NCBI GenBank assembly: GCA_013166775.1
Contig: JABLTJ010000037.1
Coordinates: 1 to 50,674 of the forward strand
Source: Promethearchaeati archaeon
GTDB taxonomy: Archaea > Asgardarchaeota > Heimdallarchaeia > Heimdallarchaeales > Heimdallarchaeaceae
DNA length: 50,674 nt
Reading direction: 5' to 3'
In this document: piece after piece, positions 10,581 to 35,691 of the stretch
How the letters are laid out: each line of letters opens with the position of its first letter
Numbering within the stretch: the stretch's first letter is position 1
Program-made: the position numbers and the translations under genes
The notes under the pieces: model-generated
The model's database searches: none
Told to the model about the DNA's origin: nothing
The model's input: the letters and a program-made list of their open reading frames with translations, nothing else

Positions 10581-12599
10581 ATGAGGGAAAGACTAAAATG
10601 TATCCATTATTATTTTCTTTTTGCTAAGATGACTGCTGAAACAGAAACCTTGAACATCCGCTCTACCTTTTTCAAATGGATTCCTATTATTTCAACATTA
10701 CTGTTAGCTGGAGTTACTTACGGAGTTCAGAGAACTGCACTATCATTATATGCTGAATCTCTTGCTATTGAACAAGCAGGAGGTCAATTTACAGATTTTT
10801 TAATCTTTATTCAAGCAGCTTCCACTATTATCGCTTATGGTTTATTTAAAGGAATAAGTGCGTTTCTAAGTGCAAAAGTGAGTAATCGTTTTAAGAGAAA
10901 AAACACAATGAGAATTGGATTAGTTTCACTCTTAATAGGTTCAGTAGCAATCGCATTTGCAACTTATTTAGGCTTGTGGGCATTGATAATTGGAAACTTA
11001 TTTATTGGTGGTGGTTTGGGATTCTTCTTTACATCTTCAATGTCAGCTTTGACTGAAATAGCTGGTGCTGAGGGTTCAGCTTTCTCTGTAGGCTCAATGG
11101 AATTCTCTGTTTATCTAGGATCTAGTCTTGGAGCATTTTTCGCTGGTCTGATAGCTAAAGAACCTGAAAACTTCGCAAGGAGTTTTATCTTCGCTTTAAT
11201 TGTCGCTGGATTAGCTGTTCTTTTAGGATTTTTCTTGATTCGAAAAGTGGAAACATCTGAGCTTGTAAAAGGAACAAAAGAAGAGATTCTTCTAGATTCC
11301 ACAAAAGTAGAATCAAAGTGGAGTTTCAGAAATATTTTCAAAACTCCTACATTGCTGCTGTCTTATTTTGCTGGTCATTTCTCAAGAGTTACTGATAGCA
11401 TTATTGTGCTACTACTCCCAGTGTTAGTCAGCACTATCTATGGTTTCCAAATATGGGAGGTAGGTTTAGTAACTGCAGGATTTACACTTGCTTGGGCTTT
11501 ATTGATGCCTTTTACAGGAAGGATAAGCGATCGATTTGGAAGAAAAGAAGCAATCTTCATAGGTTTAGCAGTTGAAGGAATTGCTTTAATTCTTATTACA
11601 TTAACTCACTCATCAATTTATGTTATTCTTCTTTCAATTGTAGCGGGAATTGGAACTTCAATATACTATCCAAGTTTGCCTTCAATCTCAAGAGATGTTG
11701 TGCCAATTGTCAAACGCGAACAAAGTCTGGGAATTTATAGAGCTTCGCTTGATTCAGGTTATGTAACAGGACCTTTATTGGCAATAGGTCTAGCTTATGC
11801 TGCAACTAATTTGAATCTATGGAATTATGCAAGCACTGCTGAGACACAGGTAATAGAGAACATGTTGAAATTTCCCTTCCTAGTATTTGGTGGAGTACTG
11901 GGTCTATTATCGATCCTCTTCATATTTTTTGCTAGAGAGACAAGACCAGGATGGGTTCAAGCTAGTCATTCCTTAAAACATGGATACAAGGTTTTGGAAG
12001 TTTTTCAGAGATTATCCAAAGCTTTTGCTTATTATATTGATGAGGTAAAAACAGAGAAAGCAATAGAGTTCATGGAGGAAGCGAAAAATCTTGAAAGAGA
12101 AGCAGACATTCTAGTAGTAGAAGTAACGCAAGCTCTTTACGCTAATATCAGACCTGCACCTGATGATTACCATTTCTATAAAATAACTGATATCTTAGAT
12201 ACTTCTATTGGTCATAGTCTTAGATCTTTAAGAAAAATCGTTATGATACCTAAAGAAAAACTACCTAAAAGCTTCATTAATTATCTGAAAGAAGAATGTA
12301 AACTTCTTGTCAATATGATTACTAAAGCTGTTGAAGCATTAGAAGTAGTGTGTATTCAACCTCTTGCATCTCATCCTATTTTCGAAGCGGTAAGTGAAAT
12401 CGAAAATGCTTTGGATAAGAATAGTATGAAAGGTTTAACTAGCATAATTAAAGATTCAGGAAATCTAAATACTGTTGAAACTCTTTACATTATTCAAATC
12501 ATTGAAGCAATGGAAATATCCGCAAATCAAATAGAAGATGCTGTTGATGTGATGAAAATTCTTGGGTTGAAGCATCAAGTGAGTCCGTTAGTATTATAG
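10581..12599 (+). CDS. MFS transporter fused to a C-terminal DUF47/PhoU-like helical domain (probable start ATG 10629)
   Basis: 12-TM MFS with motif A GRISDRFGRK; soluble tail with LEREAD..., TDILD, IENALD and ISANQIEDAVD as in DUF47 proteins. Confidence 0.8.
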   Translation: MRERLKCIHYYFLFAKMTAETETLNIRSTFFKWIPIISTLLLAGVTYGVQRTALSLYAESLAIEQAGGQFTDFLIFIQAASTIIAYGLFKGISAFLSAKVSNRFKRKNTMRIGLVSLLIGSVAIAFATYLGLWALIIGNLFIGGGLGFFFTSSMSALTEIAGAEGSAFSVGSMEFSVYLGSSLGAFFAGLIAKEPENFARSFIFALIVAGLAVLLGFFLIRKVETSELVKGTKEEILLDSTKVESKWSFRNIFKTPTLLLSYFAGHFSRVTDSIIVLLLPVLVSTIYGFQIWEVGLVTAGFTLAWALLMPFTGRISDRFGRKEAIFIGLAVEGIALILITLTHSSIYVILLSIVAGIGTSIYYPSLPSISRDVVPIVKREQSLGIYRASLDSGYVTGPLLAIGLAYAATNLNLWNYASTAETQVIENMLKFPFLVFGGVLGLLSILFIFFARETRPGWVQASHSLKHGYKVLEVFQRLSKAFAYYIDEVKTEKAIEFMEEAKNLEREADILVVEVTQALYANIRPAPDDYHFYKITDILDTSIGHSLRSLRKIVMIPKEKLPKSFINYLKEECKLLVNMITKAVEALEVVCIQPLASHPIFEAVSEIENALDKNSMKGLTSIIKDSGNLNTVETLYIIQIIEAMEISANQIEDAVDVMKILGLKHQVSPLVL

Positions 12600-12651: not shown

Positions 12652-14526
12652 ATGAAAAAAAGCCATCTCATTTTACTGTTCTTCATGTTAACTTCATTAT
12701 TACACTTGAATATTCGAACAATCAATTCATCAAGAGATGAGGGAACTCTTAATCCTCCTCAACTCGAATTAGAGAAGGTTAATACAAATCTAACTTTGTT
12801 CATAGAATTTGTTGGTTTTGATGAGGAATTTATTGATGAGGGGGAAATTCTTAGCCAAATCACTCATACATTCAATAGAGGTTCATCGTTGATAGGCACT
12901 TCTAAAATAGATTTCGATTTCAGTATCTCTTATGCAACTGATGCAGAGACTAATGCTTTGAAAAATTTCATTGAGATTATTAGTGACAAGGGATCCGGAG
13001 TTGGAAAATCTATTAATAAAACGAGATTATCTGAAGATTTAGCAACAGGTGTTAGAAGTGATTTTTTTATCACGGAGGATGGTATGGTAGCGGATGTTGA
13101 GGATGTTGAAGGTTATATTTCTGCTAATTTTTACGATGAAACTAATGCAGGAGAAGGATATACTATGTTTTTGCTTAACTTTTCTTGTTTCGATACTCCA
13201 GATCATAGTCAGGAACATTGGTATCAGATAAGTAAAGAATCATTTGATACAAATAGAACAATAAATCACTGGTATTCAGGATATAATGGCATACCTGAGA
13301 AACAGACATTAGGGTGGGGGGGAGATGAGAGGTTTTGTTTTATAGATCTTTCTTCAAGAACATGGTACTTCGATTGGATCACAACTGCTTGGCCAAGTCT
13401 TATTCCTAGTAGTGCAATCTATTACGATTACCCAGATGTTGATTCACTTATTCAAAATTATGATCCCAACACACCTGTTGGAAAATCTAAACTTTCAGAA
13501 TATATAGCAGCATGGATACAATCCTATTTGGGGAATCTCTTCTCTGCATATTATGGAGCATCTCCAATTGGAAGATCATACTCCATACAACTGCTCTTCT
13601 TCGAGAATCTAACTATTAATGGTTATTCATTCGAAGATTTTAATTGGATGATGTCTGAGAATCGAATGTTGAATCAACTCATAAAAGATTTTCCTTGGAT
13701 TGAATGGAATATTGAAGTGGAGTATGTGAGGTTTATAGATTACCCTGAAGTATTTGATTACATAGCTGAAAATGTAAAAAAGGATCAAGATGGACTTTAT
13801 ATTGAAGTTACGGATGGATTTTTCACTTACTTACAAAACAGATTGTTTGCAGATTTTAACTACTCAGCAGCAGATATAGTACTTCCCTGCTATGGTTTTC
13901 TAACAGATTATGTGAGTCTCAAATATTATGGAGTAAGTTTCGCAGGTTTAGGGGGAATGGGTTGGGAAATAATAACAGGTAGTCCAGGTTCTATTTTCGA
14001 AGATGGAGACGTATCTAAACCTAGAAGAGGGTTCACCCAAGTTATGATTCATGAACTTGGACATAGTTTAGGTTTTCCTCATCCTCATAACTATGACTAT
14101 GGTTGGGGATCATCTTTCGTTAAAGAAACAATGAATTATTTCTCTCTAGGAGAAGAGAGTTTTAGCACATTCTATAAAGATGGATTAGCAAGATCTCATG
14201 GTAATTTCTACTATCTTCTTGCACTTGAGGAAATGGAATTAGCATATGGAATATTCCTCGATGCAGGAGCACCTTCTGAATTAGATTGGTTAATAGAAGA
14301 AATTTATGGTCTACTCAATGGATATTTAGAACTGTATAATGAATTAAAATATTTATCAGCAGTTCTAAACATGACTACAGCTCTGAATAAAATCGATCTA
14401 ATTCCTTACTATATTGCTCATCCTGAAGAGATACCAACAGAACCAACTGAAAAGACAACCTTTCCACCTGGTATAATCTCCATAGCGATAGTATGGATAT
14501 TAATGAAGAAAAGAAAAAAGTATTGA
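12652..14526 (+). CDS. Cell-surface zinc metalloprotease (metzincin-like) with C-terminal membrane/sorting tail
   Basis: N-terminal signal peptide; HELGHSLGFPH (HExxHxxGxxH); Met-turn ETMNY; tail PTEPTEKTTFPPG + hydrophobic stretch + KKRKKY. Confidence 0.8.
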   Translation: MKKSHLILLFFMLTSLLHLNIRTINSSRDEGTLNPPQLELEKVNTNLTLFIEFVGFDEEFIDEGEILSQITHTFNRGSSLIGTSKIDFDFSISYATDAETNALKNFIEIISDKGSGVGKSINKTRLSEDLATGVRSDFFITEDGMVADVEDVEGYISANFYDETNAGEGYTMFLLNFSCFDTPDHSQEHWYQISKESFDTNRTINHWYSGYNGIPEKQTLGWGGDERFCFIDLSSRTWYFDWITTAWPSLIPSSAIYYDYPDVDSLIQNYDPNTPVGKSKLSEYIAAWIQSYLGNLFSAYYGASPIGRSYSIQLLFFENLTINGYSFEDFNWMMSENRMLNQLIKDFPWIEWNIEVEYVRFIDYPEVFDYIAENVKKDQDGLYIEVTDGFFTYLQNRLFADFNYSAADIVLPCYGFLTDYVSLKYYGVSFAGLGGMGWEIITGSPGSIFEDGDVSKPRRGFTQVMIHELGHSLGFPHPHNYDYGWGSSFVKETMNYFSLGEESFSTFYKDGLARSHGNFYYLLALEEMELAYGIFLDAGAPSELDWLIEEIYGLLNGYLELYNELKYLSAVLNMTTALNKIDLIPYYIAHPEEIPTEPTEKTTFPPGIISIAIVWILMKKRKKY

Positions 14527-14551: not shown

Positions 14552-16567
14552 TTATCCTTCCAATGAAAAAGGTGAAGCCTTAAAAATAGATTCTACAAGA
14601 GGATGAAACTCTTCCTCATTGACTTGTTCTAGAGCTAATTTATCTCTTAATTTAGGAATAGATTCTTTCAGGAATTTTCGAACTAGGAGTCTACTTTCAA
14701 AAGTCTCTGTATCTGCTACTAAAACAACCATTACGTTTTCTTGTTTTTCAATAATAACAGCTCTACCATCATGGGTTATACTCCTCAAAGTTTCTGTTCC
14801 TTTACCAAGAACTTCAGCAGAGAAATTGATAATTGCTGATATAAGTCCTGAGACTAGTAAATCATCTATGCTTTCTTTTCTGGAGAATTTATATGAATAC
14901 AGAGGGAGTCCGCCTTCATCAATAACAAGAAGCATATAGAGAATTATAGGTATTTTTTTTGGAGAACCGAAGGAAAAACTCATAATTTTCTTAAACAAAC
15001 GTTTTGGTCCCCTTAGCTCTTCAATTAAAGAAATCTTGTCTCTTAATCTCATCTGGATTTCTTCTGATCTGTCTGCAAGATTATATCTTTCAGCGAAATT
15101 TAATCCCGTTTTAAGTGTTTCATCAACTTTCTTATTCACATTTCTATATTGGAAATAACTAGCTTTTGTTAGAATAGCATCAATATAGAGAGGATGCTCT
15201 AACTCCTCAGTAATATGCAATAAGTTATCTATAAAATAAAGAAATTTAGTCCCATAATCGTTCTCATCAGTTATCCTGAACAACTCGAAATAACTCTCTG
15301 CTAGAGCCCCATAGGAATAGACTATTCCCTCTAGAATAAGCTGATTCTCAAAAAACTCTAAAGCTCTTTCAAAAAGCTCTACAGCTATGCTATAGTTAAC
15401 TTTTTTCTGATTATAGAGTCCTTTATAGAAATAATAGTAAGACATAGCATTAAAATTAAATTGTTCTTCTGCTAGATTAAATCCATTTTCTAGTGATGCT
15501 CCTTTATCTTTATTTGTTAGAATCTGAACATATCCATAAGTTATTTCAACAAGAGGGTATATGTAACCATAATCCTTGTTCAATTCATGAGCTTCACTGT
15601 AAAACATATCTGCTTTTTCTATCTTATCATCTAAAAGATGAATATCACCTATTTTCGATAAAGTTTGAATACGTAAGGGAATTATTAAGTTATCAATTTT
15701 CAATATTCGTTGATAAATATTCAAAGCTTCAGCTAGACCTCCACTCATCTTTTCTTTTGTAGCTATATTCAGGGAGATAATAGCTTCTAATTTAGAAGAG
15801 CTTATTTCCCTTGCTAGTTTTAGTCCATTATCAATGTGGACCTGAGCTGTTTTCACATTGTATTCCTTTAATTCTATCTGAGCTAATAGATTATAGAGAG
15901 AACATAACATCCCTTTGTTTTCAATGTTTTCTGCACGTTTTATTGCACTTTCCATCCACAGCTCCTTAAGTGTGTCATCTGCTAGATTGTATGCAAAGTT
16001 AAGCAGATCACATAGAAGTGCATCCAAAATGAAAGGAAATCGAACTGCTAAATCTTCAAGATTAATCAAATATCGTAGAAGTTCATTCAAAGCTTTGAAA
16101 CCAAGTTCAGGTTTTTTTTCAGTTGCAGATGAAAATTCATTAAGTGAAAGAATTAGAAAATCTTGTTCTTTGGAATCAGCTTTTTGATTAATTAATTTTT
16201 GAATCTTGGGAAGAACTAGTTGAAATTCTTCAAATTGAAATGTGTCTCTCAGAGCTAAAAGATAACACATCATTATTGAGAGGTTTTTAGTATCAACTTC
16301 TTTTCCAAATAGCTCCTGTAAATCTATAATTTCCTCGTATTCCTTGCTCCAATAACAATACAAGTAGTAGATAAGAAGAACAAATTGATCTTCTTTTTTC
16401 ATCTTCTTCTTAATTGAATTGAGATATCTGGAGAGCTTCTTTCGAATTTGCTCTTCATCCTTCATGTCACCTATAATGCGCTCTAAGAAGCTATAGAAGG
16501 AATCTTCATTACCTTTAATGTATTGATTAATTTCATTTGTAACAAAGCTTGGTAGAGATAAGGTCAT
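14552..16567 (-). CDS. TPR-repeat protein with C-terminal longin-like domain (paralogue A)
   Basis: TPR-like helices (TLSKIGDIHL..AD.FY..A); C-terminus LLVIDEGGLPLYSY..DDLLVSGLISAI..ITHDGRAVIIE. Confidence 0.75.
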   Translation of the reverse strand: MTLSLPSFVTNEINQYIKGNEDSFYSFLERIIGDMKDEEQIRKKLSRYLNSIKKKMKKEDQFVLLIYYLYCYWSKEYEEIIDLQELFGKEVDTKNLSIMMCYLLALRDTFQFEEFQLVLPKIQKLINQKADSKEQDFLILSLNEFSSATEKKPELGFKALNELLRYLINLEDLAVRFPFILDALLCDLLNFAYNLADDTLKELWMESAIKRAENIENKGMLCSLYNLLAQIELKEYNVKTAQVHIDNGLKLAREISSSKLEAIISLNIATKEKMSGGLAEALNIYQRILKIDNLIIPLRIQTLSKIGDIHLLDDKIEKADMFYSEAHELNKDYGYIYPLVEITYGYVQILTNKDKGASLENGFNLAEEQFNFNAMSYYYFYKGLYNQKKVNYSIAVELFERALEFFENQLILEGIVYSYGALAESYFELFRITDENDYGTKFLYFIDNLLHITEELEHPLYIDAILTKASYFQYRNVNKKVDETLKTGLNFAERYNLADRSEEIQMRLRDKISLIEELRGPKRLFKKIMSFSFGSPKKIPIILYMLLVIDEGGLPLYSYKFSRKESIDDLLVSGLISAIINFSAEVLGKGTETLRSITHDGRAVIIEKQENVMVVLVADTETFESRLLVRKFLKESIPKLRDKLALEQVNEEEFHPLVESIFKASPFSLEG

Positions 16568-16631
16568 TTAATCATCAGATACTCTAGAATGAATTTCAAG
16601 ATTTATAAATGAAGCTTTTCCACGTTCTGAT

Positions 16632-18722
16632 TCATATATCGATTTTAATTGCATCACTGAAAATTAATGTTTTTCCAAATAAGGATTTAACCTCATTATC
16701 TATTGTCTTAGCTAAGTGTTCATCTAATTCTCCATGGAAATGTTTGGGAATTTCCAAATTTGCTAGTTTGTCAGTTAATTGATGGATTTTTCTTCTTAGA
16801 GAGAATGAATCATATGCACTTACAGCTACAGAACTGAATCCTTTTGGATGTGCCTCGATGATGATTTTGTGATTGCCATAAGTTATAACCAGCATTTGAC
16901 TCTTCTGTTCCTCGAACAATTCAGTTAGCATATCTTTCACAGCTACAATAAAACCTCCAAAGAGCAGTTGATCCTTAACAGTCTTCTTTAAGATTACATA
17001 AGATCTCAAAGGTATACCAGATCTATGAAGAACAATTAGAGCTAATGGAGATATATCAATCTCAATTGGAGATTTTTGCATATATTTTAAACCGAAATCT
17101 TGAAGATTTGAGATATCATTTCTGAAAGGCTGATTTACCCAACTTATTTCTTTTTTCAGTTTTTGATTTATAACTTGACTAATCTCTTCGATTCTCTCTT
17201 CAACAATCTGCAAAAGTTGCTTGTTTTTCTCTTCTTGTAAAAGCTCTCTTGCTTGTTGAAGACTATTGAATGCTTTTGTATAATCTTTCTTTATTGCGAA
17301 AATCTTTCCTTGTAAGAGATATAATGCAATTTGCTCTTTTAATAATTTGTTCTCATTGAAAAAGGGAAGAATGTGATCCAAATTATACAGAGCTCTTTCA
17401 AGAGCAGCCAAATCATTTTCTATGTCATACTCCGCAATGTTTAGTAGAATGAGATTCATCAATATTTTCGCGGATATTTCTCCTCTTCCTTGAACATCAG
17501 CTTTCTCTAGAGCAATTTTCAGTTGCTGTTCTGCTTTTCCATAATTGAGATTTTTGATATTAAAAATCCCTTTCAAAAATAGAATGTAAGATTCAATTGT
17601 AAGAGAAGGATGGTTCCTCACTTCTTCTTCAAGCGATTCAATCAAACTTTCGAATTCATTGATTTTATTTTTTTGTAAATAAAGTTCCGCAAGAATGCAA
17701 TAATGATAAGTCTCTTTCATGTTTAACTTTTCAATAATCTGTAGAGCTTCTTCATACTTTGATATTGCTTCTTGAAAATCTCCTCGTTCAATTGCTATGT
17801 TTCCCAAACTTTTGATTGTGAGGGCTACATGTTTGTTTTCTTCTAGATTTTGAAATATTTGCAGAATCTCATTAAATATTTTCTCTGCTTGTTTCACATC
17901 TCCATAAATAGTACTTATTGTTCCTAAATTGCCTTTAGAAGCAGCTAATAAACTTAGATTTCCAGTATTCTCGAATATTTCTATAGATTCTTCTGTTAAA
18001 GTCTGTGAATCTTCTATTTGGCCACTATCTCTCTCTAAGAGAGCTAAAAGGTAAGTAATGTGGCCTATGTGATTTCTCTCTTCCAAATCCAGTGCTATAT
18101 GCAAAGCTACATTTAATTTATTTTCGAGTTTAATTTTCTCATCTACATATCTATTCAAAAAGAAATCATCTTTATGACCATCAAGCAGGATATCGTTTAA
18201 TGCTGGTTTTTCAATCCGGGTTGATTTATGAGTTCTTAATCCTTCCTCAAAAAGCATATTCAGATAGAATTTACATTGTTCATAATTACCAAGATTCAGA
18301 TATCCATTTGCTATAGAACGAATCGAATGTAATTTTAATAGAATAGAGATATTTTCTTTATCTTTAATTTTCGAAGCTAGTTTTATAACTTCTTCATTTA
18401 GACCTTTCTCCAAAGAAAATCTAAAGATCCATAGATTTAGAGCTTCAGAGGAATATTGTTGATTTAAAGAAGTGAGTGTATCATAATCCGCAATGTTGAA
18501 TAGAACCTTTCCGAGTGAAAACATAAGGATTTCAGATGGTTCGGAAATATTCAGAACAAGATCTACTAAATAATCCCTTACTTTAATTAAGGAATCTCCA
18601 GTATTGAAATCCTTTCCAGATTCTTTGAACAAATCCTGTTCTTTTTCGCTCATGAGAGGTAGGTAAATCGCAAATTCTTTTGGGAAACCTCTCTTATTTC
18701 CCTTAACCTTCATTAGCTTCAA
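16632..18722 (-). CDS. TPR-repeat protein with C-terminal longin-like domain (paralogue B; possible ATG 18713)
   Basis: TPRs such as SLGNIAIERGDFQEAISKYEEAL; C-terminus LIVLHRSGIPLRSY..DQLLFGGFIVAV..ITYGNHKIIIE..DSFSLRRK. Confidence 0.75.
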   Translation of the reverse strand: MKLMKVKGNKRGFPKEFAIYLPLMSEKEQDLFKESGKDFNTGDSLIKVRDYLVDLVLNISEPSEILMFSLGKVLFNIADYDTLTSLNQQYSSEALNLWIFRFSLEKGLNEEVIKLASKIKDKENISILLKLHSIRSIANGYLNLGNYEQCKFYLNMLFEEGLRTHKSTRIEKPALNDILLDGHKDDFFLNRYVDEKIKLENKLNVALHIALDLEERNHIGHITYLLALLERDSGQIEDSQTLTEESIEIFENTGNLSLLAASKGNLGTISTIYGDVKQAEKIFNEILQIFQNLEENKHVALTIKSLGNIAIERGDFQEAISKYEEALQIIEKLNMKETYHYCILAELYLQKNKINEFESLIESLEEEVRNHPSLTIESYILFLKGIFNIKNLNYGKAEQQLKIALEKADVQGRGEISAKILMNLILLNIAEYDIENDLAALERALYNLDHILPFFNENKLLKEQIALYLLQGKIFAIKKDYTKAFNSLQQARELLQEEKNKQLLQIVEERIEEISQVINQKLKKEISWVNQPFRNDISNLQDFGLKYMQKSPIEIDISPLALIVLHRSGIPLRSYVILKKTVKDQLLFGGFIVAVKDMLTELFEEQKSQMLVITYGNHKIIIEAHPKGFSSVAVSAYDSFSLRRKIHQLTDKLANLEIPKHFHGELDEHLAKTIDNEVKSLFGKTLIFSDAIKIDI

Positions 18723-18779
18723 TATAATTTCTTAAAGCTGAATAAAAACCTTAGCTTTCTATTAAAGTTGTAACTAAAA

Positions 18780-20828
18780 CTAACTTGACCTGTAGCTTCT
18801 TATTCCAAATAGGTTTGCGATAACTGAATCTAACTCATACGATTCGGTTTCACTCATATCTCCTTTATACTGATCTTCAAGAATACCCTTAACAGAAAGA
18901 TGTTCAACAAGTCTATGCATCTTTCTACGGAGCATAAAGCTATCTCTTAAAGCAATTACTACTACTGAAAAAAGATTGGAATAGAATTCGATTAAGAGTT
19001 TGTATTGGCCATGGTCAATAGAAAGTACCCCTTGCTTCTGATCTACAAATAATTCGTTCATTAAATGTCTAATTGCAGATACAAATCCACCGAAGAGCAA
19101 ATCATCACTTACAGAAACATCTTCAGATAAGTAAGTGCTTATCGGTATTCCACTTGAATGAAAAATCAAAATAGCCATAGGTTTCTCTTCTTTTGGAGCA
19201 GCTAATTTCTTTGATTCCTTTCTTAAAATAGTTGAAATTGTACCAATGTCCTCAATGAAGCTGACCATTCTTGCACCTACAATTTGTTCTATCTCGCTTT
19301 CTATAGCTTGCTTAACTTGTTCAATCCTTGCTCTATAATCATCCATTAACAATGGAGTATATGTTCTAGCATAATCTTCTCCTCTTTTCAGAAGAAATAG
19401 AGCAGTTTCAAAATCTAGAAGCATTATTTTGATCTTAGCTCGAATATGATAAATAATGGATAATGATTCATACTTTGCCTTTTCCTCTAAATAAGTTACA
19501 ATATCTTCTAAGCATTTATCAGCTTCAATCAGCTCTTCCAGATTTAAAGAAATAGTATACTTTTTCAAGAAGACCATTGAGATCAAAACCAATGTTTTCG
19601 AACTTAGGATTTCATTTCCTAGTTCATCTGCTTGTACCATTGCATTTTGCAAATACTCTTGAGAAATGCCAAAATTATTACTTTTGTACTCCAGAAATCC
19701 TAGAAGGAACCAATAATATGCTTGTTGAGTTGGTGTTAGATCATCTTTCCACTCTCTATCAATCATCAATAAAATTTCTTCAACTTTACCTATTGCTTCT
19801 TGATAAAGTAGAATTTCAGCATATTTCATATTCATTGAAAGATCTTGGAAACCTTTTTTCTGTAAAATTTCAAGAACTATCTCCATTTCTTCAGTTGCTT
19901 TATCAAAATCCTCTTTAGCATAATAGACATCCGCGAAATTTGAATGCAAAACGTATAAGGAACGATAATCGCTTTTCCATTTCTCAACAATACTTTTGCT
20001 CTTATTATACCAGAACATAGCTTCATCCAGATGACCCATCTGTAAGTAAACATCTCCAATGCTTCCAGTAATGTGCCCTAATAATCTATCCATCTTGATT
20101 TCTCTAGCTATTGCTTCACTTTTTAGAAAGATTTGATGAGCTAATTGAAAATTTCCTCTATCTAGTTCGATTGTTCCTATTGTACTGTAAATTTGTGCAA
20201 AAATGATTCTATCATTTAGCGCACGATTAATGTTTAAGCACTCTTTGGTTTTGTTTCTAGCTAAGGATAGAACGTAGTTTGAACGCAGATATAAAGCATC
20301 CATTTCCAGCATATAAATCTGAATGAGTTTGAAAATATCCCCTCGCATTCCCTTTTCATCTTGAGTATTTAGTGCTATAAAGTTGAAACAATTTTCCCGA
20401 TTTTCAAGATATTTACTATATTTTTGAGTTAAGAAACCACTTATTGCTTCGACATAGTAAATAAATGCAGAAAGAATCGAATCTTTGAGCATGCGTTTTA
20501 GATTATCAATATTCTCATTATATTTTTCGTAATCTCCTTTAAAGATTAAATACATCAAATACCATAAACCCAAACCATCATTGTTGGTCTTTTCATACAG
20601 GTTATTGATTTCATCGAAATGCCCTCTATGGTACAAAATTCGCCCATATAAGAAACCAAATGAATTGGAGAAAGATGTTTCTTCTTTAGCTATTTTAGAG
20701 AGAACAGTCTCAATTTCCGCTAAATTTGTATTGGGATTAAATGCTTTGTAGTTTAAAATGGCTTCTCTCTCACTCTTCTCTAAGGAATGGAAACTAGATA
20801 GAATTTCTGGAGGAAGAACATCCTTCAT
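18780..20828 (-). CDS. TPR-repeat protein with C-terminal longin-like domain (paralogue C)
   Basis: TPRs such as SIGDVYLQMGHLDEAMFWYNKS; C-terminus ILIFHSSGIPISTY..DDLLFGGFVSAI..IDHGQYKLLIE..DSFMLRRK. Confidence 0.75.
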   Translation of the reverse strand: MKDVLPPEILSSFHSLEKSEREAILNYKAFNPNTNLAEIETVLSKIAKEETSFSNSFGFLYGRILYHRGHFDEINNLYEKTNNDGLGLWYLMYLIFKGDYEKYNENIDNLKRMLKDSILSAFIYYVEAISGFLTQKYSKYLENRENCFNFIALNTQDEKGMRGDIFKLIQIYMLEMDALYLRSNYVLSLARNKTKECLNINRALNDRIIFAQIYSTIGTIELDRGNFQLAHQIFLKSEAIAREIKMDRLLGHITGSIGDVYLQMGHLDEAMFWYNKSKSIVEKWKSDYRSLYVLHSNFADVYYAKEDFDKATEEMEIVLEILQKKGFQDLSMNMKYAEILLYQEAIGKVEEILLMIDREWKDDLTPTQQAYYWFLLGFLEYKSNNFGISQEYLQNAMVQADELGNEILSSKTLVLISMVFLKKYTISLNLEELIEADKCLEDIVTYLEEKAKYESLSIIYHIRAKIKIMLLDFETALFLLKRGEDYARTYTPLLMDDYRARIEQVKQAIESEIEQIVGARMVSFIEDIGTISTILRKESKKLAAPKEEKPMAILIFHSSGIPISTYLSEDVSVSDDLLFGGFVSAIRHLMNELFVDQKQGVLSIDHGQYKLLIEFYSNLFSVVVIALRDSFMLRRKMHRLVEHLSVKGILEDQYKGDMSETESYELDSVIANLFGIRSYRSS

Positions 20829-20969: not shown

Positions 20970-22988
20970 ATGAAAAAGGCATCAATTTCCGAATCTATTG
21001 ACAAAGCATTCGAACTCTTTCACAAGAAAGGATTTTCTATAAATGAAATCAGATCTATTTTCCTGAAACTTTTTCTGCTAAGAAAACATGGTTTGATCAG
21101 TATTGGTGATTTAGAAAACAAGAATTTTCGAATGAAAGATTTTATTGATTCAAAATGTGTTATATCTTCACAATTCCTCAATAGAATGGAAAGGTTTCAT
21201 GTTTCAAATAAAGTAATTTCATCTAATCTAATTAGAGATTTATTCGACGTTTTTCGTGATCTTACTGATAATCAGTTCTTCTTGCTTTTAGATACTGAGA
21301 AGGCTCGTAAGAATAAGGGTCAATACTTTACTTCTCCAGAAATTGTTTCAAAGATTTATTCATCATTACTTCCAAACAGACAAAAAAGTGAAAACAGCAT
21401 TACTCTTGCTGATTTCTCTGTGGGATTAGGAGAGTTTGTCAAACCTTTCATTAATAATACGCAAGTTAGATACTATGCTGTGGAATTAGATCCCATTTCA
21501 TTTGAATTTCTATTGTTTAATTTAATCTGGAACCAAGAGCATGAGTTTTCTCAAAAAGCAAAAACTCTTCTTGTAATTCTTCAAGGAGATTCACTCCTAG
21601 GATATCAAGAATCTCTGTTTGAACAATTGATTGCAACGCATAAGGGATCGGAATTGTTAAAAAACTTGATTCAAATCAGGAAAAGAATATTGGAGAATGC
21701 AAATGAAGTCTCTTTAGAGAACATTTCAGATTATTTCCAGCGCAGAGAGGAAATAGCTAAGTATCATGAATCGCTATCTGAGTTTAATTGGTTTCTAGAT
21801 TTTCCTGAAATCTTCTTTGATGATGAACTAAAAAAACTGGAATTTTATGGATTTGATTTTATTGTTGGAAATCCTCCATGGGTTGGTTTCCAAGCTATCA
21901 ACCATGCTAAATATCGTTCGTTGTTTTCGAACAAATTCTTTTCTAAGGAATTATATGGAAAATTTAATTTCTCATTACCTTTCATGATTCTATCACATGA
22001 GCTCTCTAAACTAGGAGGGGGTGTTGTTATTCCAAGAGGCATTTTATCTGAAAAGTATGCTCAAATTTGGAGAAAAAAAATTATCCAGGATAGCTCTTTG
22101 TCCAAAATCACATTACTGCAAAAACAATGGTTTGATAATGTTCTAAACGAATTCTGTATAGTTTACTGGGATAAGAAAGATAGGAATAATGTTATTGAGA
22201 TTATAGATGAAGAAAATCAACAAGAAATAAAGATAGGACACGAGAGTATTAAATCACCTCTCTTCAGAATTCCACTCATACCTCAAGAAGTTTATGAAAA
22301 AATAGAGCACATTTTTGATATATCTCTAGAATTGCATGAAATATGTGACATCAGAAGAGGGTTAACTTTAAGTAGAATATATCAAGAGGAGTATTTCCAA
22401 AAGAAAGGAAAAACAGCTGAAAGACATCCAATTAAACAGCTAATTAGACACAACAAGAACAACTCAGATCATAAAGAGGGTGTGTTCAATTTTCAAATAC
22501 ACTATTTGGGAGAGGAATTTGTTTATGATAAAAATCTTCTAGGAGCACCAAGTTCTTCTGATTTTTTTGAGCGACCAAAGATAATTAGGAGAAACAGAGG
22601 AAAATATTGGTTAATAGGTTTAGACATTGAAGGCTCATATTATGTTAATGATATCTTTGATGTAATTATTCCAAAACAAAATGGATATGATGTTAAGACT
22701 ATTTTTGGGTGTCTAAGCTCTTCTATCTTTCAGTTTTTAGCTGAAAACTATCTTCAAAGAGATATCACATCCAACTTTGTAAGAAGTCTTCCTTATCCTA
22801 ATCTTTCTGATACAGATATTGAAGAGATTAAGAGAGCAGTTGATAGGTGGTTAACATCGATTAAGAGTAAGGAAGACTTTATTGTTATGAGAGAAAAAAT
22901 TGATCAAGTAATAAATAATTATTATAAACTGTCAAAAGATATTAGAGCAACGCTTGAAAATAACCTAAAGTTACGTTGGGTAGATTAG
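20970..22988 (+). CDS. N6-adenine (amino) DNA methyltransferase, gamma class / Eco57I-TaqI-like, with C-terminal target-recognition domain
   Basis: GQYFTS (motif X), DFSVGLGEF (motif I), QGDSLLG, FNWFLDFPEIFF, GFDFIVGNPPW (motif IV); TaqI-C-like tail with RPKII. Confidence 0.82.
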   Translation: MKKASISESIDKAFELFHKKGFSINEIRSIFLKLFLLRKHGLISIGDLENKNFRMKDFIDSKCVISSQFLNRMERFHVSNKVISSNLIRDLFDVFRDLTDNQFFLLLDTEKARKNKGQYFTSPEIVSKIYSSLLPNRQKSENSITLADFSVGLGEFVKPFINNTQVRYYAVELDPISFEFLLFNLIWNQEHEFSQKAKTLLVILQGDSLLGYQESLFEQLIATHKGSELLKNLIQIRKRILENANEVSLENISDYFQRREEIAKYHESLSEFNWFLDFPEIFFDDELKKLEFYGFDFIVGNPPWVGFQAINHAKYRSLFSNKFFSKELYGKFNFSLPFMILSHELSKLGGGVVIPRGILSEKYAQIWRKKIIQDSSLSKITLLQKQWFDNVLNEFCIVYWDKKDRNNVIEIIDEENQQEIKIGHESIKSPLFRIPLIPQEVYEKIEHIFDISLELHEICDIRRGLTLSRIYQEEYFQKKGKTAERHPIKQLIRHNKNNSDHKEGVFNFQIHYLGEEFVYDKNLLGAPSSSDFFERPKIIRRNRGKYWLIGLDIEGSYYVNDIFDVIIPKQNGYDVKTIFGCLSSSIFQFLAENYLQRDITSNFVRSLPYPNLSDTDIEEIKRAVDRWLTSIKSKEDFIVMREKIDQVINNYYKLSKDIRATLENNLKLRWVD

Positions 22989-31977: not shown

Positions 31978-33789
31978 TTAGCTTAAATTAAGTCTTGCTA
32001 ATTCCGCTTTAGTAGGAATACCATTTTTATCTAATCCTCGTTTTTCATAGAGTAATTTCCTAGATTTAATGAAGTCTTCTTCATCCACAAAAGCTGTTTT
32101 TCCTTCAGCTCTTCCAGATGGGAGAGGTTCTTTCATGAATCGTTTTGGAAGAGAGTCGAATTCTACAGGTTTCTTATCTCCAAATTCTCTTATATTGAAC
32201 ATTCGTTTCATAATCCAAACTCTGCGAGCTAAATCAATCAGCTCTTCTTCTGTTACTTCTTTATCCCACATAGCTGAAGTAATGTTTACACAATCTTCAA
32301 ATTTCAGTGATGGTTTTATGCTATGAGTAAAATGACAAATAGTTAAACAGTCCTTTATTGTTTTTAGATCTTGTTGCTCAATGAGGGAATCAATAACCTC
32401 TATTGCGCTCTTATCGGGAACATCTTTAGTGGAAGGCCATCCGCGCAAGTGAGAAGCCCCCACAGCAGCTGTTGCATAACTTAACCCCAAGCCAAGTTTA
32501 GCTCTTGGATCCCATGCGGCAAATGGAAGTTTTTTGACATGAATTGCTAAATCTTTGATATTCCAATGTTCAGCAGCTTGAGCTACTCCTTCAGCTAGAA
32601 CATTTCCGATATCTTTTCGATAAGCTATCTTATCAATAAGTTCTAGGAATTTGTCCATATTACCAAACTCGACATCTTCAAACTCAGGTCCTTCAACTAA
32701 TCCTTTTTCTTTTGCTTCCATGGTCATAGCAATTGCACTACCAGTAGAGATAGTATCAAGTCCTAGTTGATTGCAGAGATAATTAGCATGAATAACAGCT
32801 TCAATATCTCCAATTCCGCAATTCCCACCAAGCATTGCTAATGTCTCATATTCAGGTTTAGCTATTTCTTTCTCATCAACCCAATCGAAAACAGAAGCAT
32901 CAAGAGTTTCTGAGCAACCAATTGGACAGTTGTAACAAGGTCTTCTGAACCGTTTATACTTTTCAGCTAGAGTTTCGTGATCTAGTTTCTTGATATCTTC
33001 AAATTCTCCAGCCTGCCAATTACGAGTAGGGTAGTGGTCAAGATCGTTTGCCACATTAACCAACCAGCTAGTTCCATGTTTATGGAGTAGATGACCGTCG
33101 TCTTTAGCATTCTTAGCTCGAGCAACCAAGTCCTTTCTAATTTGATCTATCTTTTCTTGATTACCATTTGTTGGTTTGGTTGATCCTTTTACCGCTACAG
33201 CTTTTAGATTTTTATAACCAAAAACAGCTCCTAAACCACCCCTTCCTGCGTTTCTAAATCCATCAGAAGTTGTGCAAGCAAATTTCACCAAATTCTCTCC
33301 TGCAGGACCAATAGAGAGTACTCTCATTTTTGGTTCTCCCTCCTTTTCTTGGATAAGCTTCTCTGTTAGATTAACATATTTTCCCCATAGGTCTGAAGCG
33401 TCTCTGAATTCGATTGAACTGTCTTTTATGGATACATATACTGGTTTATCGGATTTACCTTCTATAATAAGAAGATCATAGCCAGAAAAACGTATTTCTG
33501 GACCGAAAAATCCTCCAGCATTGCAATCTAGATATAAACTTGTTAATGGTCCTTTGGTTCCCATGGCATACCGTCCGGAAACAGGAATTTTTGTTCCTTG
33601 GATTGGGCCAGGAGCTATGAAAATTTTATTTTCAGCTGAAAGAGGTTCAATCTTTGGTTCTAATTCTTTATACAAATAATAGGTAATATATCCTGTTCCT
33701 CCCAAATAATCATAAACAACTGATTCAGGTATTTCTTCGACTTTGGATGAAGAATCAGTTAAATTGATTCTTAAAAGCTTGTTATTCAT
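31978..33789 (-). CDS. aor: Aldehyde:ferredoxin oxidoreductase family (tungstopterin) enzyme, copy 1
   Basis: YLGGTG, SGR, IGPAGEN, AGRGGLGAVFG.KNLKA, CYNCPIGC [4Fe-4S] ligands, PEYET, LGLDTIS, GASHLRG, TIC, LPKRF. Confidence 0.95.
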   Translation of the reverse strand: MNNKLLRINLTDSSSKVEEIPESVVYDYLGGTGYITYYLYKELEPKIEPLSAENKIFIAPGPIQGTKIPVSGRYAMGTKGPLTSLYLDCNAGGFFGPEIRFSGYDLLIIEGKSDKPVYVSIKDSSIEFRDASDLWGKYVNLTEKLIQEKEGEPKMRVLSIGPAGENLVKFACTTSDGFRNAGRGGLGAVFGYKNLKAVAVKGSTKPTNGNQEKIDQIRKDLVARAKNAKDDGHLLHKHGTSWLVNVANDLDHYPTRNWQAGEFEDIKKLDHETLAEKYKRFRRPCYNCPIGCSETLDASVFDWVDEKEIAKPEYETLAMLGGNCGIGDIEAVIHANYLCNQLGLDTISTGSAIAMTMEAKEKGLVEGPEFEDVEFGNMDKFLELIDKIAYRKDIGNVLAEGVAQAAEHWNIKDLAIHVKKLPFAAWDPRAKLGLGLSYATAAVGASHLRGWPSTKDVPDKSAIEVIDSLIEQQDLKTIKDCLTICHFTHSIKPSLKFEDCVNITSAMWDKEVTEEELIDLARRVWIMKRMFNIREFGDKKPVEFDSLPKRFMKEPLPSGRAEGKTAFVDEEDFIKSRKLLYEKRGLDKNGIPTKAELARLNLS

Positions 33790-33882: not shown

Positions 33883-35691
33883 TTAAATTCCTAAGCGTTC
33901 AATCTCCTCTTTTGTTGGAATTCCAAATTGATCGAGTCCTCTTTTCTTGTAAAGCAATTGTAGCGATTTCTCGTAATCCTCTTCACTTATGAAAGCTTTA
34001 CTTCCTTCAGCTCTTCCTGAAGGCAAAGGTTCTTGCATAAATCTCTTTGGAAGGACATCATAATCTACTGGTTTTTCATCCTCATACTGGTTGATATTGA
34101 AGAGTCGTTTAGTTATCCATATTCTTTGTGCTATCTCCATCATCTCTTTACGGGGAACTTTTCTATCCCATAAAGCTGATAATATATTTTGTCTGTCTTT
34201 GAAAGTAAAACCACCTTCTATCACATATGAAAAAGTACATACGACTAAACAGTCGATCAGGGATTTGTAATCTTGTTGCTCGATCAAGGAGTCTATTACA
34301 TCAATTGCGCTTTTATCTGGAATTTCAGATGTTTGAGGCCACCCACGCAAATGCGATGCTCCCACTGCAGCGGTTGAATAGCTTAAGCCTAATCCTCTTT
34401 TTCCTCTAGGATCCCAAGCTGCAAAAGGTAAACCTTTCACGTGGATTGCTAAATCTTCCACTCCCCATTGTTCAGCTGCTTGTGCTACTCCTTTTGCGAG
34501 AATATCTCCAAAACCTTTTCTATAAGCTATCATTTCCAGCATTTCAAATATCTTTACTCTGTTTCCGAATTCTACACCTTCAAATTCAGATCCTTTGAGA
34601 AAACCTTTTTCCACTGCTTCCATTGTCATAGCAATAGCACTTCCTGCTGATATTGTATCCAGACCTAGTTGATTGCAAAGATAATTTGCTCGTATTATTG
34701 TTTCATGATCACTAATTCCTACATTTCCTCCGAACATAGCCATAGTTTCATATTCAGGTCGTGCTACCTCTTCCTTCTCGGTCCAGTCAAAAACAGATGC
34801 ATCTAATGTACTAGAGCATCCTATTGGGCAATTATAACAAGGTCGTTTGATAGCTGTATACATCTCGTCCAAAATTTCACCACTTAGCTTCTCATACTCT
34901 TCAAATTCACCTGATTGCCAATTACGTGTTGGATATTGGCTCATTTCGTTAGAAAAGGCAACTGCATTACTTGTACCATAAATGAACATCCCTGCTCCTC
35001 TATCTTTTGCTTCTTTTGTTCTTTTGAGTATATCTTTACGAACTTCATCTATTTTATCTGGATTACCATTTGATGGTTTACCGGAGCCCTTTACAGCTAC
35101 AGCTTTGAGATTCTTTGATCCAAATACTGCTCCTAATCCTCCTCTTCCAGGATTGTGATGAATATCAGCTGTTGGACATGAAATAGTTACAAGGTTTTCT
35201 CCTGCTGGACCAATTGCAATTATCCTCATTTTGGGTTCACTTTCATCTTTTCTAATCGTATCCTCTGTTTCGTAGAACAGTTTCCCCCAGAGATGTTTAG
35301 CTTCCTTAATTTTCACTACATCATCTTTAACCGAGATGTAAACGGGTTTTTCTGCTTTCCCTTCAATTATAATCAAATCATATCCTGCAAATCGTATTTC
35401 AGGACCAAGAAATCCGCCTGCATGGCTATCTAGGAAATGATTTGTTAATGGACTTAATGCTCCAACAGCATAACGTCCTGTAATAGGAATCTTACCTCCT
35501 TGAGCAGGTCCTGGAGCTATAATTAGCTTATTTTCTGGAGACAATGGTTCTATTCTCCTCTTTATTTCTTTGTAAAGATAATAACTGATAAATCCAGTCC
35601 CTCCAATGTATTTTTCTTCAATTTCCTTTGGAATTTTCTCTTTGAAAATTTCTTTATTTGTTAAGTTTATTCTCAGAAGATTGTTTTTCAT
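33883..35691 (-). CDS. aor: Aldehyde:ferredoxin oxidoreductase family (tungstopterin) enzyme, copy 2
   Basis: Same motif set as copy 1 (CYNCPIGC, PEYET, LGLDTIS, GASHLRG, VVC). Confidence 0.95.
   Translation of the reverse strand: MKNNLLRINLTNKEIFKEKIPKEIEEKYIGGTGFISYYLYKEIKRRIEPLSPENKLIIAPGPAQGGKIPITGRYAVGALSPLTNHFLDSHAGGFLGPEIRFAGYDLIIIEGKAEKPVYISVKDDVVKIKEAKHLWGKLFYETEDTIRKDESEPKMRIIAIGPAGENLVTISCPTADIHHNPGRGGLGAVFGSKNLKAVAVKGSGKPSNGNPDKIDEVRKDILKRTKEAKDRGAGMFIYGTSNAVAFSNEMSQYPTRNWQSGEFEEYEKLSGEILDEMYTAIKRPCYNCPIGCSSTLDASVFDWTEKEEVARPEYETMAMFGGNVGISDHETIIRANYLCNQLGLDTISAGSAIAMTMEAVEKGFLKGSEFEGVEFGNRVKIFEMLEMIAYRKGFGDILAKGVAQAAEQWGVEDLAIHVKGLPFAAWDPRGKRGLGLSYSTAAVGASHLRGWPQTSEIPDKSAIDVIDSLIEQQDYKSLIDCLVVCTFSYVIEGGFTFKDRQNILSALWDRKVPRKEMMEIAQRIWITKRLFNINQYEDEKPVDYDVLPKRFMQEPLPSGRAEGSKAFISEEDYEKSLQLLYKKRGLDQFGIPTKEEIERLGI

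Follow-up and report, generated by a model that had tools for sequence, protein, structure and literature searches.

The stretch of DNA analysed here (the window) is the complete contig C10, 50,674 bp long, from a Heimdallarchaeaceae assembly of 3.85 Mb with a completeness of 88.7%. On its minus strand, at 14552-20828, lie three intact and co-oriented open reading frames (ORFs), here called genes A, B and C, each of which encodes a solenoid of tetratricopeptide repeats (TPR) followed by a C-terminal longin domain. The reading that we favour, with a probability of about 0.55, is that C and B are an old sister pair whose products act together, their longin domains forming a dimer that would dock a small GTPase, and that A is a separate paralog which stands beside them only in the genus of the window. 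All three are selectively maintained paralogs of a large TPR-longin family that is spread across the Asgard archaea and whose longin is nearest in sequence, at scores below the Pfam cut-off, to the Mon1/Fuzzy first longin domain (LD1).

Longin heterodimers are the catalytic heart of TRAPP, Mon1-Ccz1, CPLANE, BLOC-3, folliculin and GATOR1, which are regulators of Rab and Rag GTPases. The Asgard archaea are rich in both longins and small GTPases. The C-B pair is a clean and conserved candidate within the Heimdallarchaeaceae, and could be tested against the roughly 35-40 small GTPases (Ras-, Rab- or Arf-like) that searches of the assembly with PF00071 and PF00025 identify in this genome. Should the pair turn out to have no role with a GTPase, the family, which comprises at least 800 sequence clusters, would suggest that archaea use the longin fold for something other than GTPases.

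Gene order and descent of the three paralogs

Gene A (14552..16567, minus strand) starts with an ATG and encodes 671 aa, gene B (16632..18722, minus strand) encodes 696 aa when read from a TTG, and gene C (18780..20828, minus strand), the upstream member of the C-B pair, encodes 682 aa. The gaps between them are 64 bp for A-B and 57 bp for B-C. The real start of B is likely to be the ATG at 18713, which lies 9 nt downstream of the TTG and is the database call; it gives a protein of 693 aa with a 100% match to P0007 and a B-C gap of 66 bp, and an AT-rich TATA-like run, as judged by eye, precedes it. In the source databases the three proteins are labelled merely as 'tetratricopeptide repeat protein'. 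Eight DNA runs and no RNA run are listed for the locus, and the three that contain most of it are marine-sediment metagenomes.

An earlier note on this DNA had described three co-oriented homologous genes, and both the ORFs and BLASTP agree with it, the domain limits falling near those it claimed. B and C align collinearly across 662 aa (E 2e-48), A matches B at E 1e-10, and A matches C at E 5e-7 through the longin part only; the flanking 672-aa ORFs, one for a transporter fused to a PhoU-like domain and the other for a DNA methyltransferase, are unrelated to any of the three. Between paralogs the solenoids are 19-22% identical and the longin domains 24-37%, with the highest value between the longins of B and C (36.6%). 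The note was therefore right that the TPR parts have diverged while the longin was kept, and that B and C are closer to each other than to A. Overall B and C share only about 25% identity, so their duplication is old.

Trees were built with FastTree on 123 rows and with IQ-TREE (LG+G4) on 37 rows. In both of them the B clade and the C clade are sisters with support of 99-100, each holding deep orthologs, and A lies outside B+C. The apparent sister of A is a paralog on contig C75, a join flagged in both trees as a possible long-branch artefact, and for this reason we limit the claim to A being outside B+C.

Gene order was compared in four genera of the family, including that of the window, which is represented by 24 species. 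In the latter genus orthologs of A are found in 17/24 species and orthologs of C in 22/24, and at least 12 species have C-B-A in one order and strand, flanked by a methyltransferase gene and by a pair of genes for an HExxH protein and a major facilitator superfamily (MFS) transporter fused to PhoU. C followed by B is adjacent in all four genera searched, including two closed genomes of another genus, and C-then-B pairs are also found on the metagenome contigs L016, L036 and L048. The position of A, by contrast, is not kept. In two closed genomes of one other genus it sits 440 kb and 487 kb from C-B, in a second other genus it is on a different contig and interrupted by a stop, and in the third it was not found, though C and B are adjacent there. 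It is cleanly absent from G013 (L031), in which only 78 nt separate B and the HExxH gene, and in L016 the C-B pair is kept with an HxlR gene in the place of A. A deeper A-type ortholog stands alone beside an MFS-PhoU gene in a closed genome (L046), and C-type genes tend to adjoin a methyltransferase gene, for example in L016 and L039. Considering the position of A in the trees, its losses, its lack of linkage elsewhere and this lone A-type ortholog, the triplet looks like two old loci that were joined in the genus of the window.

Two further observations concern the state of these genes in other genomes. One in-frame TAA is present in each of two A-type ortholog matches (G109:C1:712101-714095 and G120:C33:14630-15649), which may mean that A is in decay in genomes beyond the window's genus. 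In one species of that genus (G011; L032/L033, contigs C55 and C32) C and the methyltransferase gene share one contig and B-A lies on the other, with 2.8 kb of other sequence upstream of B-A, which would be explained by either a rearrangement or an assembly break.

The earlier note had gone on to interpret the triplet as one heteromeric unit. An obligate A-B-C heterotrimer, acting as a single solenoid-longin scaffold, a guanine nucleotide exchange factor (GEF) or a proto-adaptor, would account for the common C-B-A order and strand with the same flanks in at least 12 species and for the purifying selection on all three genes described below. It does not, however, explain why A branches outside the B+C clade, why it is unlinked in two other genera (440-487 kb away or on another contig) and not found in a third, why it is missing from L031 and swapped for an HxlR gene in L016, or why the deeper A-type ortholog stands alone, and we consider such a trimer quite improbable. 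Synteny across genera thus holds for the C-B pair, which is conserved in all four, and fails for the triplet, which is specific to one lineage. If the three-subunit interpretation is wrong here, as we think, the locus guards against the over-reading of similar tandem loci.

Strong purifying selection acts on each of the three genes. In comparison with the nearest species, the ratio of nonsynonymous to synonymous substitution rates (dN/dS) for solenoid and longin respectively is 0.065 and 0.064 in A, 0.093 and 0.049 in B, and 0.075 and 0.030 in C, so that in B and C constraint is stronger on the longin than on the solenoid. Orthologs are 62-97% identical in the longin and 30-92% identical in the solenoid, the latter being scored as two regions. 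This stable constraint, together with the one-to-one orthologs, means that A, B and C are not a repertoire with fast turnover. The gene order is most economically explained if the products of B and C act jointly, perhaps in a heterodimer.

The longin domain and the TPR solenoid

In each of the three proteins a TPR-type alpha-solenoid of approximately 515 residues is joined through a short helical linker to a C-terminal domain of approximately 130 aa. On the minus strand the longin domain of A lies at 14555..14965 (residues ~535-671), that of B at 16635..17060 (residues ~555-696 of the TTG form) and that of C at 18783..19211 (residues ~540-682). The longin of B alone was folded, and those of A and C were assigned through alignment: A has a sub-threshold match to PF19036 and a match to the family profile at E 1.4e-30, and C has 36.6% identity to the longin of B and a profile match at E 1.6e-34.

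An AlphaFold2 (AF2) model of B residues 550-696, made with a 79-sequence family alignment, has a predicted local distance difference test (pLDDT) score of 87.1 and a predicted template modelling (pTM) score of 0.83. Its secondary structure (E12-17, E22-27, H36-53, E61-66, E69-76, E80-86, H91-105, H119-136) follows the order beta-beta-alpha-beta-beta-beta-alpha-alpha, and the order in the model of full-length B is identical. We then compared this model with 48,161 Protein Data Bank (PDB) representatives in an exhaustive structural scan (VIA). Longins head the structural matches, which include VAMP7 (Z 11.3 over 116 aa, root mean square deviation 3.4), AP5 sigma (Z 11.1), Trs23 (Z 10.7), synbindin (Z 10.6), Fuzzy (7q3d_C, Z 10.4), a Lokiarchaeal longin dimer (8yqg, Z 10.4), Sec22 (Z 10.3) and chains of Mon1/Ccz1 (Z 9.1-9.6). 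These longin matches cover model residues ~9-137, including both C-terminal helices. Matches to MglB and other roadblock proteins score Z 9.3-11.2, yet are confined to the core at residues 6-112. Since roadblock coverage ends at about residue 110 and longins match the whole length, the domain is a longin and not a roadblock. By its model the C-terminal domain of B is a true longin fold, as the earlier note had proposed from a sequence pattern that fits this order, and the alignments extend this to A and C.

Foldseek gives a similar result, with Bet5 (2j3t_C) and VAMP7 as the best matches of the B longin; 7b6d_C, 1h3q and 3cue_A likewise align along the whole domain, and in a structure atlas the domain matches eukaryotic sybindin and sedlin with template modelling scores of 0.67 and 0.70. 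Both the TRAPP core pair (Bet5/TRAPPC1 and Trs23/TRAPPC4) and sedlin are therefore full-domain structural matches to the B longin. By sequence the relationship is more distant. A search of PDB sequences with the family profile returned weak matches only (BET5 at E 0.45, dynein roadblock at E ~1), and the A longin by itself reaches MON1A at E ~1 among solved structures, which is too weak to count alone. The tail of A matches PF19036 (Fuz_longin_1) at E 5e-4, with 20.7 bits against a Pfam cut-off of 26.1, and the Pfam scan gave no longin match for the tails of B and C; among the 79 family members 15 reach PF19036 at E <= 0.01, the best of them at E 1.1e-6. The closest curated sequence family of the tails is, under threshold, the first longin domain of Fuz/Mon1/HPS1, so that Mon1-Ccz1, Fuzzy-Inturned (CPLANE) and HPS1-HPS4 LD1 (PF19036/PF19031) share with them both the fold and the nearest curated family. 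A weak alignment of the A tail with human MON1A LD1 shows a common G-x-P-x-Y-S hairpin and helix-1 pattern.

The N-terminal parts of A, B and C are TPR solenoids, and their matches to TPR_12 and TPR_MalT sit mid-protein. TPR_12 scores 33.6 bits in A, 57.8 in B (E 1.3e-15) and 52.1 in C (E 7.7e-14) against a cut-off of 30.1, and TPR_MalT scores 53.5 bits in B (E 2.9e-14) against a cut-off of 45. The AF2 model of full-length B (pLDDT 86, pTM 0.82) contains a solenoid, a linker helix and a single longin at 558-685. The solenoid of B (17061..18713, minus strand) is modelled as approximately 26 helices over residues 12-515, followed by the linker helix at 531-546, and its Foldseek matches are the TPR superhelices of LGN/Pins, KLC1, APC/C subunits and OGT; as modelled, it resembles peptide-binding superhelices such as those of LGN and KLC1. 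Pfam, the full-length model and Foldseek thus agree with the TPR-like helices proposed earlier.

The motifs hhhxxxG[IL]Ph and DxLL[FV][GS]G[FL]hxAh are present in the family alignments, in keeping with the shared C-terminal pattern given in the earlier note. The glycine of the beta1-beta2 hairpin is invariant (79/79 family members) and is followed two residues on by a proline. An arginine at the start of beta-3 (column 69 of alignment A3, within [ED]-R-I) is present in 56/79 members, and A and human MON1A carry it one position earlier, the alignment with MON1A being weak. In the orthologs of B this arginine is replaced by valine (23/24) and in those of C by serine (17/20), and no other arginine is conserved in the alignments across all of the A, B and C longins. 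Without the beta-3 arginine the longin surface of B and C differs from that of most of the family, including the arrays next to GTPase genes that are described below.

These residues bear on the possibility that the tails are GTPase-activating proteins (GAPs). The longin GAPs FLCN-FNIP, NPRL2-NPRL3 and C9orf72-SMCR8 have a GP motif before beta-2 and an arginine finger (PMC12290439), and the invariant glycine and the proline lie at the same beta1-beta2 site, so that the G-x-P hairpin could be taken for the GP motif of a folliculin/NPRL2/SMCR8-type GAP. The motif of this family is, however, G-[IL]-P, which aligns with G-K-P-V-Y-S of the GEF subunit MON1A; the Pfam matches point to Fuz/Mon1 LD1 and not to folliculin; and the widespread beta-3 arginine is gone from B and C. 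We regard a GAP of this kind as very improbable. The arginines R94/R95 of B (LRRK, at the start of alpha-2), which are invariant in B and C, were considered as an arginine finger and set aside. From textbook longin topology the start of alpha-2 would lie at the end of the sheet opposite the G-x-P hairpin.

Family spread, GTPases and a possible mode of action

To place the locus within its family, the tail profile was searched against 1.84 billion cluster representatives. It matched 3188 clusters at E <= 1e-3, of which 801 reached E <= 1e-10. The majority of the best matches are 580-800 aa long and carry the domain at their extreme C-terminus. In the sampled genomes of the phylum the longin domain is carried by 143/151, and ORFs of 600-760 aa that end in it are common and often in tandem. 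The family of the locus is part of the expansion of roadblock and longin proteins known from Asgards, which includes fusions to GTPases (Tran et al. 2024, PMC10933270; Liu et al. 2021, 10.1101/2020.10.19.343400). ESCRT-related Vps28-C/adaptin/longin proteins with optional TPRs have also been reported in Asgards (PMC10936438). No description of the TPR-plus-longin architecture or of the C-B pair was found in the main text of the papers searched, though an asCOG number in the supplement of Liu et al. is possible. The earlier note had stated that TPR-longin fusions are known to occur in Asgards; in the papers searched no account of such fusions was found. A, B and C exemplify an undescribed Asgard protein family, and C-B is a plausible two-subunit candidate.

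This genome contains eight long TPR-longin genes, and the same longin family also occurs in it as proteins of approximately 150 aa and in other architectures. It is also found as a C-terminal fusion on three Arf-family GTPases of 302-336 aa (L005, L007 and L010; C97:80333-81340, C97:59058-59963 and C16:92705-93712). Two of the three fusion genes lie less than 1.5 kb from another Arf-like gene. The Asgard GTPase-longin and GTPase-roadblock fusions and the stand-alone longins therefore draw on the same longin family as A, B and C, which differ from them in adding the TPR.

We also examined five tandem TPR-longin arrays from other Asgard families. G086 (L041, G086:C33:12001-26000) has five copies and one more, with a small GTPase after each set, G144 (L044, G144:C48) has three copies and then a small GTPase, and G069 (L042, G069:C3) has eight copies in tandem. 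The arrays match the longin profile at E 1e-36 to 1e-46, and three sampled array-linked Rab-like GTPase ORFs from G086 and G144 share 68-77% identity among themselves. Their TPR-longin proteins have the same two-domain architecture, longin profile and tandem habit as A, B and C. The arrays differ in holding 3-8 copies and in that some end at a dedicated GTPase, whereas the window locus has neither such a neighbour nor a clear ortholog of that GTPase in its genome, and in the tree it falls in a separate clade from the GTPase-linked arrays (31/123 rows). An ortholog in this genome of the array-linked GTPase was sought and rejected, the best matches being approximately 35% identical and scattered over several paralogs.

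Such arrays could be understood as a sensor repertoire, in which fast-changing TPR heads bind different partners and constant longin tails report to one GTPase. In keeping with this, the solenoids of the paralogs are far more diverged than their longins, the G086 and G144 arrays end at a Rab-like GTPase, and the neighbours of the family in the structure atlas include Asgard TIR-TPR proteins. For A, B and C themselves it appears quite improbable, as each keeps one-to-one orthologs in different genera, purifying selection acts on the solenoids (dN/dS 0.065-0.093), the number of copies stays at two or three, and a GTPase gene was not found nearby.

If C and B do act together, a mode of action can be proposed by analogy. 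Longin and roadblock dimers are known as GTPase platforms, as in TRAPP Bet5-Trs23, the LD1s of Mon1-Ccz1, MglB and Ragulator (summarised in PMC10933270). The longin tails, B with C or each with itself, would dimerise by way of helix alpha-1 and the edge strand, in the manner of solved longin and roadblock dimers, and the dimer would offer a docking surface to a small GTPase whose gene lies elsewhere in the genome. A context for such docking is given by the fusions of this longin family to Arf-type GTPases in the same genome and by the arrays of other Asgards that end at a Rab-like GTPase. The groove of the TPR solenoid would bind a peptide or protein partner, and the protein would thereby couple the bound partner to the GTPase switch. 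A complex prediction for the B longin with the C longin, using their own alignments (A5 and A6), reached 0.26 and 0.29, the mark being 0.32, and weighs neither way on binding.

A more specific proposal sees in C-B an exchange factor or platform made of two longin subunits, an archaeal system of the Mon1-Ccz1 kind. The two diverged LD1-type longins would make up the heterodimer that binds the GTPase, with TPR arms in place of LD2-LD3 or of accessory subunits. The diverged paralogs C and B, side by side, recall the two-subunit logic of Mon1/Ccz1. The tri-longin Rab GEFs, which the locus resembles most without belonging to them, carry three longins per chain, whereas the model of B has one, and none of them has the solenoid of approximately 515 aa that precedes the longin in A, B and C. 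The TRAPP longins are likewise without a TPR fusion, being small stand-alone subunits flanked by subunits of the Bet3 family, and no Bet3/TRAPPC3 gene is present in the neighbourhood of the locus. We put this analogy forward tentatively and think it unlikely in its full form; if true, the tri-longin Rab GEFs would have in C-B a free-standing forerunner among prokaryotes, within an archaeal family often placed nearest to the eukaryotes.

Several observations weigh against a C-B pair that docks a GTPase. In searches of the assembly, which is 88.7% complete, with PF00071 and PF00025, no small-GTPase gene was found on C10 or in the 8 kb to either side of each of the eight long TPR-longin genes, and coupling to an adjacent small GTPase in an operon, in the style of MglB-MglA, is absent from the window locus by the same whole-assembly searches. 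The array-linked Rab-like GTPase has no clear ortholog in this genome, the Pfam longin scores are under the curated cut-off, and the beta-3 arginine is missing from B and C. As to the pairing itself, the gaps of 57-134 nt between the genes allow separate promoters, a C-type gene in L039 has no adjoining B, and on L018, a distant contig, the B-like gene and the C-like gene point towards each other and so do not form an operon there.

Some of these points would be expected if the paralogs were independent, each acting alone or as a homodimer, with the C-B adjacency a frozen remnant of tandem duplication without any coupling. Tandem duplication is the habit of the family, as the arrays of 3-8 copies in other Asgards indicate, the solved Lokiarchaeal longin domain (8yqg) is a homodimer, an AT-rich TATA-like stretch lies ahead of each gene, and the convergent genes in L018 fit equally well. 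What this explanation does not account for is that the C-B order is kept in four genera while the surrounding genes have changed. Neutral adjacency seldom persists in archaeal genomes for as long as the age of this duplication would demand. Independence is a serious but doubtful alternative, and the old sister pair acting together remains our preferred reading.

Neighbouring genes in the window

Between A and the MFS-PhoU gene lies a gene on the plus strand (12652-14526) for a 624-aa protein with the zinc-protease-like motif HELGHSLGFPHPH, an N-terminal signal-like segment and a C-terminal hydrophobic anchor; it has no Pfam match, and is found in this position throughout the genus with 44-84% identity. 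The MFS transporter (10581-12599, plus strand) has a C-terminal PhoU_div (DUF47) domain, and the family as a whole keeps both this fusion and its place in the gene order. On the other side, divergent from C, is an Eco57I-type N6 DNA methyltransferase with a TaqI_C specificity domain (20970-22988, plus strand), which is kept beside C in the genus with 36-77% identity and also stands by the C-type genes of L016 and L039. No restriction partner of this methyltransferase was noticed.

The other genes of the window give no functional hint for A, B or C. They encode a glycosyltransferase, a sulfotransferase, methyltransferases, GNAT and HEAT proteins, TYW1 and two aldehyde:ferredoxin oxidoreductases, the last of these being tandem genes on the minus strand (31978-33789 and 33883-35691) for proteins of 602-603 aa with near-identical Pfam scores.

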